A DNA stretch of 64,000 bases from Escherichia coli (GCF_003018255.1 NZ_CP027440.1), one strand, 5' to 3'. Positions 19,216 to 25,226 are shown, counted from the stretch's first letter. The notes: generated from the sequence alone by a model not told the origin. Translations and numbers: made by a program.

Positions 19216-21564
19216 ATGCTGAGTTTATACGAAAAGATAAAGATAAGGCTGATAATTTTATTTTTATTGGCAGCACTGTCATTTATTGGTCTTTTTTTCA
19301 TCATTAACTATCAACTGGTATCGGAACGCGCGGTAAAACGTGCCGATAGCCGCTTTGAACTTATTCAGAAAAACGTTGGCTATTTCTTTAAAGATATTGA
19401 ACGTTCGGCCCTGACATTAAAGGACTCACTATATTTATTAAAAAATACAGAGGAGATTCAACGCGCCGTAATTCTGAAAATGGAAATGATGCCATTTTTA
19501 GACTCGGTGGGACTGGTACTTGATGATAATAAATATTATCTCTTTTCGCGGAGGGCGAATGATAAAATCGTTGTTTATCATCAGGAACAAGTAAATGGAC
19601 CGCTTGTCGACGAGTCAGGGCGGGTTATTTTTGCCGATTTTAACCCATCGAAACGACCGTGGTCGATGGCTTCAGATGACTCTAACAACAGCTGGAATCC
19701 GGCATACAATTGCTTTGATCGTCCGGGTAAAAAATGTATCTCTTTTACGCTACGCATCAACGGCAAAGATCACGATTTGTTAGTGGTGGATAAAATTCAT
19801 GTCGATTTAAACTGGCGATATCTGAACGAGTATCTTGATCACATCAGCGCTAATGATGAAGTTCTATTTTTAAAGCAAGGTCATGAGATCATTGCCAAGA
19901 ATCAACTCGCGCGTGAAAAATTGATTATTTATAATAGCGAAGGTAATTATAATATTATTGATTCTGTCGATACGGAATATATTGAAAAAACATCAGCGGT
20001 GCCAAACAACGCATTATTCGAAATCTATTTTTATTATCCTGGTGGTAATTTATTGAACGCATCAGATAAACTTTTTTATCTGCCGTTTGCGTTCATTATT
20101 ATCGTATTGTTGGTGGTTTATTTAATGACCACTCGTGTGTTCCGTCGGCAATTTTCTGAAATGACCGAGCTGGTTAATACGCTGGCGTTTTTGCCCGACT
20201 CAACGGATCAGATCGAGGCTCTGAAAATTCGCGAAGGCGATGCGAAAGAGATTATCAGCATCAAAAATTCGATCGCGGAAATGAAAGATGCCGAAATTGA
20301 ACGGTCAAATAAATTGCTCTCACTGATCTCTTACGATCAGGAAAGCGGTTTTATTAAAAATATGGCGATTATTGAATCCAACAATAATCAGTATCTGGCT
20401 GTGGGGATCATCAAACTGTGTGGTCTGGAAGCTGTGGAAGCGGTGTTTGGTGTTGATGAACGCAATAAAATCGTCAGGAAATTGTGTCAGCGAATTGCCG
20501 AGAAATATGCGCAATGCTGCGATATCGTGACATTTAATGCCGATCTCTATTTACTCCTGTGCCGGGAAAATGTACAGACGTTTACCCGTAAGATAGCGAC
20601 GGTAAACGATTTTGACAGCAGTTTTGGCTACCGCAATCTGCGCATCCATAAGTCTGCTATTTGTGAACCTTTGCAGGGGGAAAACGCCTGGAGTTACGCA
20701 GAAAAGCTGAAACTGGCGATTTCCAGTATCCGCAACCATATGTTCTCAGAGTTTATTTTCTGTGATGATGCGAAACTCAACGAAATAGAAGAGAATATCT
20801 GGATTGCGCGTAATATTCGCCATGCAATGGAAATTGGCGAACTATTCCTCGTCTATCAACCGATCGTTGATATTAACACCCGCGCCATTCTGGGCGCGGA
20901 GGCGTTGTGCCGTTGGGTGTCTGCGGAGCGGGGGATCATTTCACCGCTGAAGTTCATTACCATTGCTGAAGATATCGGGTTTATCAATGAGCTGGGCTAT
21001 CAAATTATTAAAACCGCGATGGGTGAATTCAGACATTTTAGTCAGCGTGCGTCGCTGAAGGATGATTTCTTACTGCATATTAATGTTTCGCCCTGGCAGT
21101 TAAACGAACCACACTTTCATGAGCGTTTTACTACCATCATGAAAGAAAATGGCCTGAAGGCGAACAGCCTTTGTGTTGAGATCACTGAAACCGTGATTGA
21201 GCGAATTAATGAACATTTTTATCTCAATATTGAACAACTGCGTAAACAAGGGGTACGGATATCGATTGATGACTTTGGCACCGGTTTGTCAAACCTGAAA
21301 CGTTTTTATGAAATTAATCCAGACAGCATAAAGGTGGACTCGCAGTTTACCGGCAATATTTTTGGTACTGCGGGAAAAATTGTGCGCATTATTTTCGATC
21401 TGGCACGCTATAACCGGATCCCGGTGATTGCGGAAGGCGTAGAGAGCGAAGACGTTGCGCGCGAATTAATCAAATTAGGATGTGTTCAGGCTCAGGGGTA
21501 TCTGTACCAGAAACCCATGCCATTCTCCGCCTGGGATAAAAGTGGAAAATTAGTAAAAGAGTAG
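19216..21564 (+). CDS. pdeI: Membrane c-di-GMP phosphodiesterase (EAL domain)
   Basis: 782-aa ORF; N-terminal TM segment and periplasmic domain; C-terminal EAL motif (AEALCRW); AT-rich. Confidence 0.85.
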
Positions 21565-21571
21565 TTTACGT

Positions 21572-22900
21572 ATGTCCAGAATCAATAAGTTCGTACTTAC
21601 AGTCAGTCTGCTGATTTTTATCATGATTTCAGCAGTTGCCTGCGGGATCTACACTCAAATGGTAAAGGAACGGGTGTATAGCCTGAAACAGTCCGTTATT
21701 GATACTGCTTTTGCGGTGGCAAATATTGCTGAATATCGGCGTAGCGTGGCAATTGATCTTATCAACACGCTAAATCCCACGGAGGAACAGCTGTTGGTTG
21801 GCTTACGCACAGCTTACGCCGACTCGGTTTCACCCTCTTATTTGTACGATGTCGGTCCTTATCTGATTTCCAGTGACGAATGTATTCAGGTAAAGGAGTT
21901 CGAGAAAAATTATTGTGCAGATATTATGCAGGTTGTGAAGTATCGACATGTCAAAAATACAGGGTTTATCTCTTTTGATGGTAAAACCTTCGTCTATTAC
22001 CTCTATCCGGTAACTCACAATCGTAGTCTGATATTTTTGCTTGGTCTGGAACGTTTTTCTTTACTGTCAAAATCGCTGGCGATGGATAGCGAGAACCTGA
22101 TGTTCTCCCTGTTCAAGAACGGTAAATCGGTGACCGGTGATGAATATAACGCTAAAAACGCCATCTTCACTGTTTCGGAAGCGATGGAGCACTTCGCCTA
22201 TTTGCCGACCGGGTTGTACGTATTTGCTTATAAAAAAGACGTTTATTTTCAGGTATGTACATTGATTATTTTCTTTGCCGCATTGGTGGCAGTGATATCG
22301 GGTGCCAGTTGCCTCTATCTGGTACGCAGAGTGATTAATCGTGGTATTGTGGAGAAAGAAGCCATTATTAATAACCATTTTGAACGCGTACTGGATGGCG
22401 GGCTTTTCTTTTCGGCTGCCGATGTCAAAAAACTCTACAGTATGTATAACTCGGCATTCCTGGACGATCTGACCAAAGCGATGGGCAGAAAATCCTTTGA
22501 CGAAGATTTAAAAGCGCTGCCGGAAAAAGGCGGTTATTTGTGCCTGTTTGACGTCGATAAATTCAAAAACATTAACGACACCTTCGGTCATTTGCTGGGC
22601 GATGAAGTGTTGATGAAAGTGGTGAAAATCCTTAAATCACAGCTCCCCGTAGATAAAGGTAAAGTCTACCGCTTCGGCGGTGACGAATTTGCGGTGATTT
22701 ATACGGGTGGAACGCTGGAAGAGTTGCTATCGATTCTAAAAGAAATTGTTCATTTCCAGGTGGGAAGCATTAATTTAAGCACCAGTATCGGTGTAGCGCA
22801 TTCAAATGAATGTACTACCGTCGAACGCTTGAAAATGCTGGCGGATGAGCGACTGTATAAGAGTAAGAAAAACGGCAGGGCGCAGATTAGCTGGCAGTAG
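21572..22900 (+). CDS. dgcI: Membrane diguanylate cyclase (GGDEF domain)
   Basis: 442-aa ORF; GGDEF motif (RFGGDEF) near the C-terminus; 7-nt gap after pdeI. Confidence 0.85.
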
Positions 22901-22913
22901 AATTAGAATAGTG

Positions 22914-22941
22914 TTAGTACCCCTTAATCAAGGGGTACTAA
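22914..22941. repeat. 28-bp perfect stem-loop at the dgcI-distal edge of the two-gene cassette
   Basis: TTAGTACCCCTT-aatc-AAGGGGTACTAA: 12-bp perfect arms, 4-nt loop, no U-tract on either strand. Confidence 0.7.
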
Positions 22942-22969
22942 TGAATGTGGTAAATCATTTGCAAACATT

Positions 22970-23299
22970 TTACTTTGCAAAAACTTCCGGCCCTTTTATT
23001 GCCAATGTATTCAAAATACGTAATGCCGGGCCGCTCGGTTTTATTTCATTACGTTCCCATTTCGAGACACTTTCTTTTGACATTCCCATTGTATGTGCCA
23101 GCACGGATTGTGACATGCCGTATCGGGTGCGGATGGCTTTGATCTCTTCACCCGTCATTGATTTGACTTTGGCTATACGGGCGCTGACTTCACGAGCTTT
23201 GACCATGACGGCAATGGCATCAACTTCACTATCAGACATCAGGCCCAGTGCATTCAGTTCCTTTGCATCTTCCAGCATCATTTGTAATTTATCGCTCAT
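22970..23299 (-). CDS. HTH (XRE/MqsA-C-terminal-like) DNA-binding protein; candidate antitoxin and autorepressor
   Basis: 109-aa ORF; C-terminal HTH region (YGMSQSVLAHTMGMSKESVSKWERNEIKPSGPALRILNTLA); GAGGTG Shine-Dalgarno; ATG overlaps the upstream ORF's stop by 11 nt. Confidence 0.7.
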   Translation of the reverse strand: MSDKLQMMLEDAKELNALGLMSDSEVDAIAVMVKAREVSARIAKVKSMTGEEIKAIRTRYGMSQSVLAHTMGMSKESVSKWERNEIKPSGPALRILNTLAIKGPEVFAK

Positions 23300-23675
23300 T
23301 TTTCACCTCAATCAAAAAGCCAGTTTCGATCAAATCCTCTATTTGCTTATTGCTAAAGGCCAGAAATGCATTTGCCATTTTTTTGTAGGCCGCCAGTTCA
23401 TCATCTTCGATTTCTTTGGTTCCTTTACTGCTTAGACCACTCTTGGACCAACCATCATAAAAAAACACATGATTTGCTGATTTAAAAAAGATAATTGTTC
23501 TGGCTCCACCACTCTTTCCTTGTTGGAGGGGTAAACGTTTTTTGATGACACCGCTACCTAAATCAGCCTCCCATATGCCCTGAATCACTTCTTCAGCGGC
23601 AGCCATGAGAACTTTATCGTGAATACCAAGTTTTTTCGTGCTTTGGCTGAATCGTCTTGCCTTATACACACCCAT
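23289..23675 (-). CDS. RelE/ParE-superfamily-like toxin candidate (DUF1044/COG4737-type, GKSGGxR motif)
   Basis: 128-aa ORF; AGGA Shine-Dalgarno 7 nt upstream of the ATG; conserved DLGSGVIKKR...GKSGGARTIIFF core typical of this toxin family; AT-rich relative to flanking core genes. Confidence 0.65.
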   Translation of the reverse strand: MGVYKARRFSQSTKKLGIHDKVLMAAAEEVIQGIWEADLGSGVIKKRLPLQQGKSGGARTIIFFKSANHVFFYDGWSKSGLSSKGTKEIEDDELAAYKKMANAFLAFSNKQIEDLIETGFLIEVKNER

Positions 23676-23690
23676 ACATCCATCCTTGTG

Positions 23691-23727
23691 GTAATGTTTA
23701 CTATAGTAACCATTACGCTTATTTCAA
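23691..23727 (-). promoter_or_regulatory. Sigma70-like promoter (-35 TTGAAA, 16-nt spacer, -10 TATAGT) overlapped by a 26-bp palindromic operator
   Basis: Minus-strand read TTGAAA-N16-TATAGT; palindrome GTAATGTTTACTATAGTAACCATTAC (23691-23716) contains the -10 and sits about 15 nt upstream of the toxin ATG. Confidence 0.6.
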
Positions 23728-23900
23728 GTAATTGCGATCAAAACTTTAATTTGGTGTGAAAAAGTGAGAGTTGCCTCGAGTACGATTCATTTTTCTCGAT
23801 TTATGCGTCAGGGGATTTTGTGCGTAAGGGTAGGACATCGGGAAGGGTAGCAGAGGCAGATCGAAGAACAATATCCTTGTTAGATCTGCCTTAAGATTAA

Positions 23901-25226
23901 TTAAACCCGGCTACCCCACAAATCGTACTCATCGGCGTGCTCGACTTTCACACGCAGGATATCACCCGGCTTAACGTTGGTTTCACCATTGAGATAAACC
24001 GCGCCGTCGATTTCCGGTGCATCTGCCATGCTGCGACCAATCGCACCTTCTTCGTCCACTTCGTCGATAATCACCAGAATTTCACGGCCCACTTTCTCTT
24101 GCAGGCGCTCGGCGGAAATCTGCTGCTGCAACTGCATGAAACGGTTCCAGCGTTCTTCTTTCACTTCTTCCGGAACCTGGTCAGGCAGGGCATTGGCGTC
24201 TGCACCTTCAACCGGGCTGTATTTAAAGCAGCCAACGCGATCCAGACGTGCTTCTTTCAGGAAGTCGAGTAGCATCTGGAAATCTTCTTCCGTCTCGCCA
24301 GGGAAGCCGACAATAAAGGTTGAGCGTAGGGTCAGTTCCGGGCAGATTTCGCGCCACTGTTTGATGCGCGCGAGTTGGCGATCTACAGAACCCGGACGCT
24401 TCATCAGTTTGAGAATGCGCGGGCTGGCGTGCTGCAACGGAATGTCCAGATAGGGCAGGATTTTGCCTTCTGCCATCAGTGGGATGACGTCGTCCACATG
24501 CGGATAAGGGTAAACGTAGTGCAGACGTGTCCAGATCCCCAGTTTCGATAACTGTTCGCACAGGCTGACCATGCTGGTTTTTACCGGCTCGCCGTTGTGG
24601 AAGCCAGTACGATGTTTAACATCGACGCCATAGGCGGAAGTATCCTGCGAGATCACCAGAATCTCTTTAACGCCCGCATCAACCAGACGTTTCGCTTCAC
24701 TTAACACTTCGCCAATCGGACGGCTCACTAGGTCGCCGCGCATAGACGGAATAATGCAGAAGGTGCAGCGGTGATTACAGCCTTCAGAAATTTTCAGATA
24801 GGCATAATGACGCGGCGTCAGTTTCACACCTTGTTCTGGCACCAGGCTCAGGAATGGGTTGTGTTTCGGTTTTGGCACGTAGTGATGAACGTGCTCCAGA
24901 ACCTGCTCATAGCTATGAGGCCCGGTGATTTCCAGCACTTTCGGGTGGACTTCGCGGATCTGATCTTCTTTTGCCCCCAGACAACCGGTCACAATTACCT
25001 TGCCGTTTTCATTCAACGCTTCACCAATGGCTTCCAGTGATTCTTGTACCGCGCTGTCAATAAAGCCGCAGGTGTTGACGATCACCATGTCCGCATCGTC
25101 ATAGCTCGGTACCACGTCATAACCTTCAGTGCGTAGTTCGGTGAGAATACGCTCTGAATCGACAAGGTTTTTCGGGCAGCCAAGGGAAACAAAGCCGATT
25201 TTCGGCTGGGGAGTTACTTTGCTCAT
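23901..25226 (-). CDS. rimO: Ribosomal protein S12 methylthiotransferase (radical SAM)
   Basis: 441-aa ORF; N-terminal MTTase domain; radical-SAM motif CNHRCTFC; C-terminal TRAM domain. Confidence 0.9.

Follow-up and report, generated by a model that had tools for sequence, protein, structure and literature searches.

We analysed a 64,000-nucleotide stretch of Escherichia coli DNA (GCF_003018255.1, NZ_CP027440.1; hereafter the window) in which the interval between dgcI and rimO holds two overlapping minus-strand genes, a toxin gene of 128 amino acids (23289..23675) and an antitoxin gene of 109 amino acids (22970..23299). Our data indicate that this cassette is very likely a HigBA2-type module on the chromosome, a type II toxin-antitoxin system named here after the higBA2 module of Vibrio cholerae, and that it is probably an old, variably retained resident of the junction between rimO and the gsi-dgcI genes. 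We found two coupled genes, one predicted promoter, a conserved palindrome over the -10 box of that promoter, and an intact predicted catalytic triad accompanied by an aromatic fourth residue. From its sequence, the module is genuine and probably active.

By homology with the V. cholerae system, the toxin is most likely an enzyme that enters the A site of the ribosome and cleaves mRNA under translation by means of R47, R59, K78 and the aromatic W76. [quoted passage not shown] Both genes would be co-transcribed from the single promoter, with their translation probably coupled through an 11-nt overlap. As happens in V. cholerae higBA2, loss of the labile antitoxin would then release the toxin and lift repression of the operon.

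The toxin and antitoxin genes

The initial annotation had described two minus-strand open reading frames (ORFs) of 128 and 109 amino acids with the toxin leading, and ORF calling recovered both where it had placed them. The motif that it read in the 128-amino-acid protein, DLGSGVIKKR...GKSGGARTIIFF, is present in the sequence, as is the 11-nt overlap between the two genes (23289..23299, minus strand, ATGAGCGATAA), which has GAGGTG just upstream. This overlap makes translational coupling of the two genes probable; among related toxin-antitoxin loci, overlaps of 4-14 nt are usual. Direct reading of the sequence places a Shine-Dalgarno-like AAGGA 7 nt 5' of the toxin ATG (23683..23687, minus strand).

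The toxin had been assigned at first to the DUF1044 branch of RelE-type toxins, and a Pfam search agrees. PF06296 (Pfam "RelE", formerly DUF1044) matched the protein end to end (E=3.3e-32, 111.7 bits, residues 1-124 on model positions 1-120 of 120), and this domain was present in all 69 of the 69 toxin homologues having a recorded domain. No model in NCBIfam or PADLOC matched the toxin. The exact window toxin sequence occurs on 729 contigs, and the protein is already annotated in public genomes: RefSeq names it "type II toxin-antitoxin system RelE/ParE family toxin" and its partner "helix-turn-helix domain-containing protein", and this naming is correct.

A profile built from 27 toxin homologues (alignment A2) matched only HigB-2 chains in the Protein Data Bank (PDB; 5ja9, 5ja8 and 8a0x, E=2e-4), and the match runs through the GG..KkR...GKsGG.R core. 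The AlphaFold2 model of the toxin built on the same alignment had a predicted local distance difference test score (pLDDT) of 86 and a predicted template modelling score (pTM) of 0.82. When this model was searched with Foldseek, the top structures were HigB2 chains 8a0x_C and 5ja8_C (probability 1.0), followed by the RelE-type ribosome-dependent RNases Cami1, YafQ and Mycobacterium tuberculosis HigB1, with ParE structures ranking far lower.

Alanine substitutions of R51, R64, Y82 and K84 in HigB-2 have been shown to lower activity 170- to 3000-fold (PMC5416850). A hidden Markov model (HMM) alignment places these residues at R47, R59, W76 and K78 of the window toxin. R47, R59 and K78 do not vary across 45 homologues with 38-77% identity to the window pair (compared as fused sequences); position 76 is always aromatic, being Trp in Enterobacterales and Phe or Tyr elsewhere. 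The ratio of nonsynonymous to synonymous substitution rates (dN/dS) for the toxin is approximately 0.10 against O157:H7 and approximately 0.08 against the 73%-identical pair of Enterobacteriaceae bacterium UBA5654 (locus L004). For the antitoxin, dN is 0 against O157:H7 and dN/dS is approximately 0.07 against L004. These substitution patterns indicate that both genes are under purifying selection.

The C-terminal XRE HTH first ascribed to the 109-amino-acid protein was recovered as a Pfam match to HTH_3 (E=3.4e-9, residues 53-94), together with a weak match to MqsA_antitoxin (E=5e-4). All NCBIfam matches of the antitoxin (MqsA family, NadS, DicA, YiaG) fell under their curated cut-offs and covered the HTH part only; TIGR03830 (CxxCG_CxxCG_HTH) reached 47.1 bits against a cut-off of 61.8 over profile positions 51-122, and the YiaG model NF007481 matched weakly at 26.7 bits. 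The initial annotation had called this HTH "MqsA-like", which stands for the HTH part and goes no further: the antitoxin contains 0 cysteines and so lacks the MqsA zinc ribbon with its two CxxCG motifs. Membership in the MqsA family was ruled out by the missing cysteines and by the TIGR03830 score.

A search of the PDB with the single antitoxin sequence reached HigA-2 (5jaa, E=6e-4). With the antitoxin family profile, the best genuine match was again HigA-2 (5j9i/5jaa/8a0x, E approximately 9e-12), ahead of the P22 C2 repressor; in the fused-profile search, higher-ranked rows were artefacts of the added Gly-Ser linker, and only the HigA-2 and phage-repressor matches are meaningful. Since the toxin profile and fold lead to HigB-2 and the antitoxin profile leads to HigA-2, the nearest solved relative of each partner is its V. 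cholerae HigBA2 counterpart.

A scan of one genome per species yielded 80 loci encoding relatives of the toxin, drawn from Enterobacterales (Kluyvera, Siccibacter, Pantoea, Enterobacter, Pectobacterium, Proteus, Providencia, Photorhabdus, Xenorhabdus), Legionellales and other groups. An antitoxin homologue begins within or just past the end of the toxin gene in 78 of the 80, which is the same HigBA-like order, toxin before antitoxin, that had been noted for the cassette. The locus L003 (JAIJJM010000872.1, labelled Collinsella sp.), a contig of 1198 bp, takes in the end of dgcI and matches the E. coli cassette at 99% identity. Its DNA almost certainly comes from E. coli and was mis-binned into a metagenome-assembled genome of Actinobacteria. 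For a model of the complex, 45 toxin-antitoxin pairs were fused via a (GGGGS)5 linker (alignment A3) and the window pair was predicted. The fused model reached a pLDDT of 86.4, falling below 50 in the linker only, and a pTM of 0.79. In this model, antitoxin residues 4-17 and 23-41 form two helices with a pLDDT of 95-98.

Promoter, putative operator and stem-loops

The initial annotation gave the cassette its own promoter, and a promoter scan predicts a sigma-70-like one on the minus strand (23700..23727), with a -35 box TTGAAA at 23727-23722, a 16-nt spacer and a -10 box TATAGT at 23705-23700 (10/12 matches). The -10 box and its distance to the start codon are kept in the relatives L004-L006, L018 and L019. 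A putative operator, a 26-bp palindrome (23691..23716, inverted repeat I3, GTAATGtTTACTA/TAGTAAcCATTAC), covers the -10 box and is centred on it. Its 13-nt arms (GTAATGTTTACTA/TAGTAACCATTAC) contain one mismatched pair and are 92% complementary, and the palindrome occurs once in the 64-kb window and in none of 100 shuffles. The palindromic operator proposed earlier is present as a palindrome whose binding by the antitoxin is predicted.

The palindrome is kept, in position and core sequence, in Enterobacteriaceae UBA5654, Kluyvera, Siccibacter, Pantoea, Enterobacter and Phytobacter, and the adjoining non-coding DNA is unalignable. In Siccibacter, it is the sole non-coding stretch that can be aligned to the window (96% over 28 bp). 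The window core is retained in the upstream palindromes of L004 (CGTAATGATTACTATAGTAAAGATTACG), L005 (GTAATCTTTACTATAGTAACAATTAC), L006 (GTAATGATTACTATAGTAACCATTAC) and Pantoea (CCGTAATGATTACTATAATAATCATTACGG), and most related loci have a palindrome at a matching distance 5' of the toxin start. We compared the 110 nt upstream of each toxin start across loci L003-L082 and found that the palindrome varies by clade, with GTAATnnTTACTATAGTAAnnATTAC in Enterobacteriaceae, TATAGTAATAATTACTATA in Legionella and TATAgCACTnAGTGcTATA in other, more distant Gammaproteobacteria. From these sequences it looks as though the operator and the antitoxin are co-evolving, and the clade-varying palindromes represent a good data set on HTH specificity. 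The V. cholerae higBA2 operator, mapped by footprinting, is a single inverted repeat that begins past the -35 box and spans the -10 box (PMC11006873), and the layout of the putative window operator is the same. A second imperfect palindrome (GTAAATCATTTGCA/TGCAAACATTTTAC, 22950-22973) overlaps the antitoxin stop codon and has GTAA...TTAC ends, as does the putative operator; it may be either another binding site or a chance occurrence.

The strong stem-loop reported at the distal edge of the cassette is a perfect 12-bp stem between the antitoxin stop and the dgcI stop (22914..22941, inverted repeat I2), with RNA folding z-scores of -3.3 (minus strand) and -5.5 (plus strand). Because it has no U-tract, it was missed by the terminator scan, and it probably serves as a two-way transcription stop for the convergent genes. 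Another stem-loop lies directly 3' of the rimO stop codon (23854..23891, inverted repeat I1, -16.2 kcal/mol, z=-3.6); it also has no U-tract and probably separates rimO transcription from the cassette. No Rfam RNA family matched 22700-24100. A plus-strand ORF of 196 amino acids (22845..23435), antisense to the antitoxin, was set aside since the minus-strand genes have homologues, domain matches and a dN/dS of approximately 0.1, and ORFs of 41-42 amino acids at 23585-23871 were not taken as genes.

Distribution, history and alternative explanations

Of 5426 complete E. coli genomes, 1138 have the cassette at the dgcI-rimO site, O157:H7 being one of these, and the remaining genomes match the flanks only. 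The cluster-member accession CBG33750.1 is presumably from strain 042. K-12-type genomes lack the cassette and have only a short intergenic region here, as the initial annotation stated for the K-12 reference: the dgcI-rimO gap is 46 bp and carries a different hairpin. The sequence common to the window and the K-12 type ends at the dgcI stop codon and restarts at 23896, so that 22900..23895 is the differing segment, with approximately 42 bp of the K-12-type gap in its place (alignment with the K-12-like strain NEB Turbo).

Compared with O157:H7, the cassette is 98.1-99.1% identical without indels and the flanking genes are 97.9-99.1% identical; overall, cassette divergence ranks as flank divergence does. 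Relatives at a rimO/gsiD junction occur in Enterobacteriaceae UBA5654 (73% protein identity) and Kluyvera (68%). In L004, the gene order is rimO, a 316-amino-acid ORF, the toxin-antitoxin pair and gsiDCB, and in Kluyvera sichuanensis (L005) the pair abuts gsiD. The neighbourhood of the window cassette consists of core genes only, with gsiABCD-pdeI-dgcI on one flank and rimO-bssR-yliI on the other, and no mobile-element genes or defence island were found in it. The cassette (41.2% GC) had been described as more AT-rich than the flanking core genes, which is true relative to rimO (52.6% GC) and fails relative to dgcI (43.3%) and pdeI (41.4%).

The strain-specific accessory insertion suggested by the initial annotation is contradicted by the 1138 of 5426 genomes with the cassette, the flank-matched divergence, the rimO/gsiD relatives and the absence of mobile-element genes. 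Likewise, a recent horizontal insertion was ruled out given that divergence matches the flanks, mobility genes are lacking and the position is shared in other genera. At the cassette/K-12 junctions, we found no convincing short direct repeats of the kind left as an insertion or deletion scar. By sequence comparison, the module looks like an old resident of the rimO/gsi-dgcI junction that has been lost or replaced in many E. coli lineages; repeated exchange of the cassette via the flanking core genes is a possible alternative.

The 316-amino-acid ORF between rimO and the toxin-antitoxin pair of UBA5654 (L004:2738-3688) has no counterpart in the window. To the eye, it may resemble immunity proteins of the SMI1/KNR4 type, and the ORF suggests that the gap downstream of rimO gathers accessory genes. 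In strain JNE23-011 (L083), the cassette region is 100% identical to the window across 1401 bp; pdeI, which is an intact ORF of 782 amino acids in the window (19216-21564), is annotated as frameshifted in that strain (L083:16518-18865). More distant relatives lie on large Providencia and Moellerella plasmids and on a Xenorhabdus plasmid, most of them typed as conjugative or mobilizable. A 37%-identical toxin relative with its antitoxin is found in the early region of Escherichia phage PhiR12_3, a prophage of ECOR13 (L084:2451-3134), where it sits between an antirepressor gene and roi/ea22 and where the toxin is apparently split into two short annotated ORFs. The relatives on plasmids and in an E. 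coli prophage indicate that the family as a whole is mobile.

Several of our results weigh against a module of the HigBA2 kind. The similarity to HigB-2 is remote: a PDB search with the single toxin sequence returned nothing at E<=1, and the structural alignment of the toxin with HigB-2 has 11-16% identity and a template modelling score (TM-score) of approximately 0.5. The catalytic Tyr82 of HigB-2 is Trp76 in the window toxin. The N-terminus of the antitoxin is modelled as two helices, unlike the helix and strand of HigA2, so the details of neutralisation may differ. The high pTM of the fused model across a floppy linker suggests a defined toxin-antitoxin complex, the interface of which is inferred rather than seen. 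Promoter-like sites were no more frequent in the scan than in shuffled sequence, and the promoter is for this reason supported by its position and its conservation in relatives. Truncated toxin variants of 73-122 amino acids occur in E. coli genomes (P0013, P0016, P0025, P0034, P0039, P0052). Finally, our literature search, made by RefSeq accession and by guessed O157 locus tags, turned up no publication about this E. coli pair.

In view of the modelled antitoxin N-domain and Trp76, we considered whether the enterobacterial PF06296 branch works unlike HigBA2, with the two-helix N-domain clamping the extra C-terminal helices of the toxin rather than bringing about beta-strand sliding, and with Trp replacing the catalytic Tyr. 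The module's patchy retention at a fixed site in the core genome could in that case be due to a role under selection, for instance in phage exclusion or stress tolerance, and not to simple addiction. We hold this to be unlikely.

It is improbable that the pair functions mainly in anti-phage abortive infection, in which infection would release the toxin and the ensuing translation shut-off would kill or arrest the cell. Although RelE/ParE-superfamily toxins are found in defence contexts (PMC11980606), our literature search found no experimental link for the PF06296 toxin family. The search of PADLOC-DB 2.0 returned 0 families for the toxin and generic HTH matches only for the antitoxin (HTH_VI, RmrA, control protein). 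The relative in the early region of prophage PhiR12_3 and the variable presence of the cassette among strains would fit such a role; the neighbours gsiABCD-pdeI-dgcI and rimO-bssR, however, are all core, with no defence island or mobile-element genes. The tie to phage defence drawn in the initial annotation is not borne out by the PADLOC results or by these core metabolic neighbours.

We regard it as quite improbable that the cassette is a decayed remnant whose toxin has lost its toxicity and whose HTH protein serves as an ordinary regulator only. Chromosomal toxin-antitoxin modules often decay. The truncated toxin variants, together with a fragmentary cassette in one E. coli genome (hit H112, 52% coverage, 92% identity), indicate that the module is decaying in some lineages. 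In the window, by contrast, both ORFs are full length and the catalytic residues are intact, the toxin dN/dS is approximately 0.1 against both O157:H7 and the 73%-identical relative, and the exact toxin sequence recurs on 729 contigs. Lastly, a ParE-like gyrase poison in place of an mRNA endonuclease is highly improbable, for although the fold is common to both activities and the RefSeq name "RelE/ParE family" is compatible with either, the Pfam match is to PF06296 instead of the ParE family PF05016, HigB-2 and other ribosome-dependent RNases are the nearest structures, with ParE far below, and the residues equivalent to the HigB-2 active site (R47, R59, K78) are invariant.

A chromosomal module of the HigBA2 kind remains the explanation that we prefer. 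The module is a new member of a known, structurally characterised family, and an ordinary one, being found in about a fifth of E. coli strains. It adds one RelE-type toxin-antitoxin pair to the variable E. coli repertoire, which has little import beyond cataloguing, and nothing in it would surprise a specialist. Its value lies in a natural presence/absence pair at a fixed site (O157:H7 with the module, K-12 without) for studying the role of chromosomal modules, and in adding to the HigBA2 family a toxin of greater length and an antitoxin whose N-domain is built differently.

Comparison with known toxin-antitoxin systems

We compared the module with four known systems. Like E. coli MqsR/MqsA, it has the toxin-first order and an HTH resembling the C-terminal domain of MqsA; unlike MqsR/MqsA, its toxin falls outside PF15723, and its antitoxin has no cysteines and no zinc-ribbon N-domain. 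The HigB-HigA modules of Rts1 and of E. coli K-12 share with it the toxin-first order, a RelE-fold toxin of the ribosome-dependent RNase type and an XRE HTH antitoxin. Their Pfam families are PF05015 and PF09907, whereas the window toxin matches neither. HigB-type toxins of Rts1 and K-12 also lack a C-terminal helix (PMC5416850).

PF06296 toxins paired with YiaG/HigA2-like antitoxins have been described as relE-yiaG modules, for example in E. coli VREC0535 (Gerdes, PMC11980606), and in the window module, too, a YiaG/HigA2-like HTH protein is encoded downstream of a PF06296 toxin. The relE-yiaG antitoxins were modelled with N-terminal helices touching the C-terminal helices of the toxin (PMC11980606), and the two-helix N-domain of the window antitoxin agrees with this arrangement. 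The relE-yiaG toxins are defined by long disordered N-terminal extensions, which the window toxin lacks, as a stop codon bounds its ORF and the Pfam match starts from position 1. The accessions of the window proteins were not found in the supplements of that study (PMC11980606).

The closest counterpart is V. cholerae HigBA2. The HigB-2 family is that of PF06296, with ribosome-dependent mRNA cleavage and toxin-then-antitoxin order (Gerdes, PMC11980606). The initial annotation considered the family poorly characterised, which is not the case: for V. cholerae HigB-2, crystal structures have been solved, the active site has been mutagenised and the operator has been mapped (PMC5416850, PMC11006873), and the system is represented by PDB entries 5JA8, 5JA9, 5JAA and 8A0X. 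The two systems also differ. The window toxin has 128 amino acids compared with 110 in HigB-2, with two extra C-terminal helices and a terminal strand, and it has Trp76 for Tyr82. Where HigA2 has a disordered segment that folds to a helix and a strand (PMC5416850), the antitoxin N-terminus is modelled with two helices. The higBA2 operator TGTACGC-N5-GCGTACA contains a spacer, whereas the putative window operator is a 26-bp palindrome without one (GTAATnnTTACTA/TAGTAAnnATTAC), and higBA2 lies in a superintegron, whereas the window module lies on the core chromosome. Alongside these differences, the two systems share a PF06296 toxin, the toxin-first order and the best solved-structure match for each partner. 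The toxins have in common the active-site Arg, Arg and Lys, an aromatic residue at the fourth position and a flexible Gly/Lys-rich loop between beta2 and beta3. Both antitoxins combine an N-terminal neutralising region, inferred in the window protein, with a C-terminal XRE HTH domain, and both modules have a single inverted repeat, in the window a putative operator, that starts past the -35 box and spans the -10 box.

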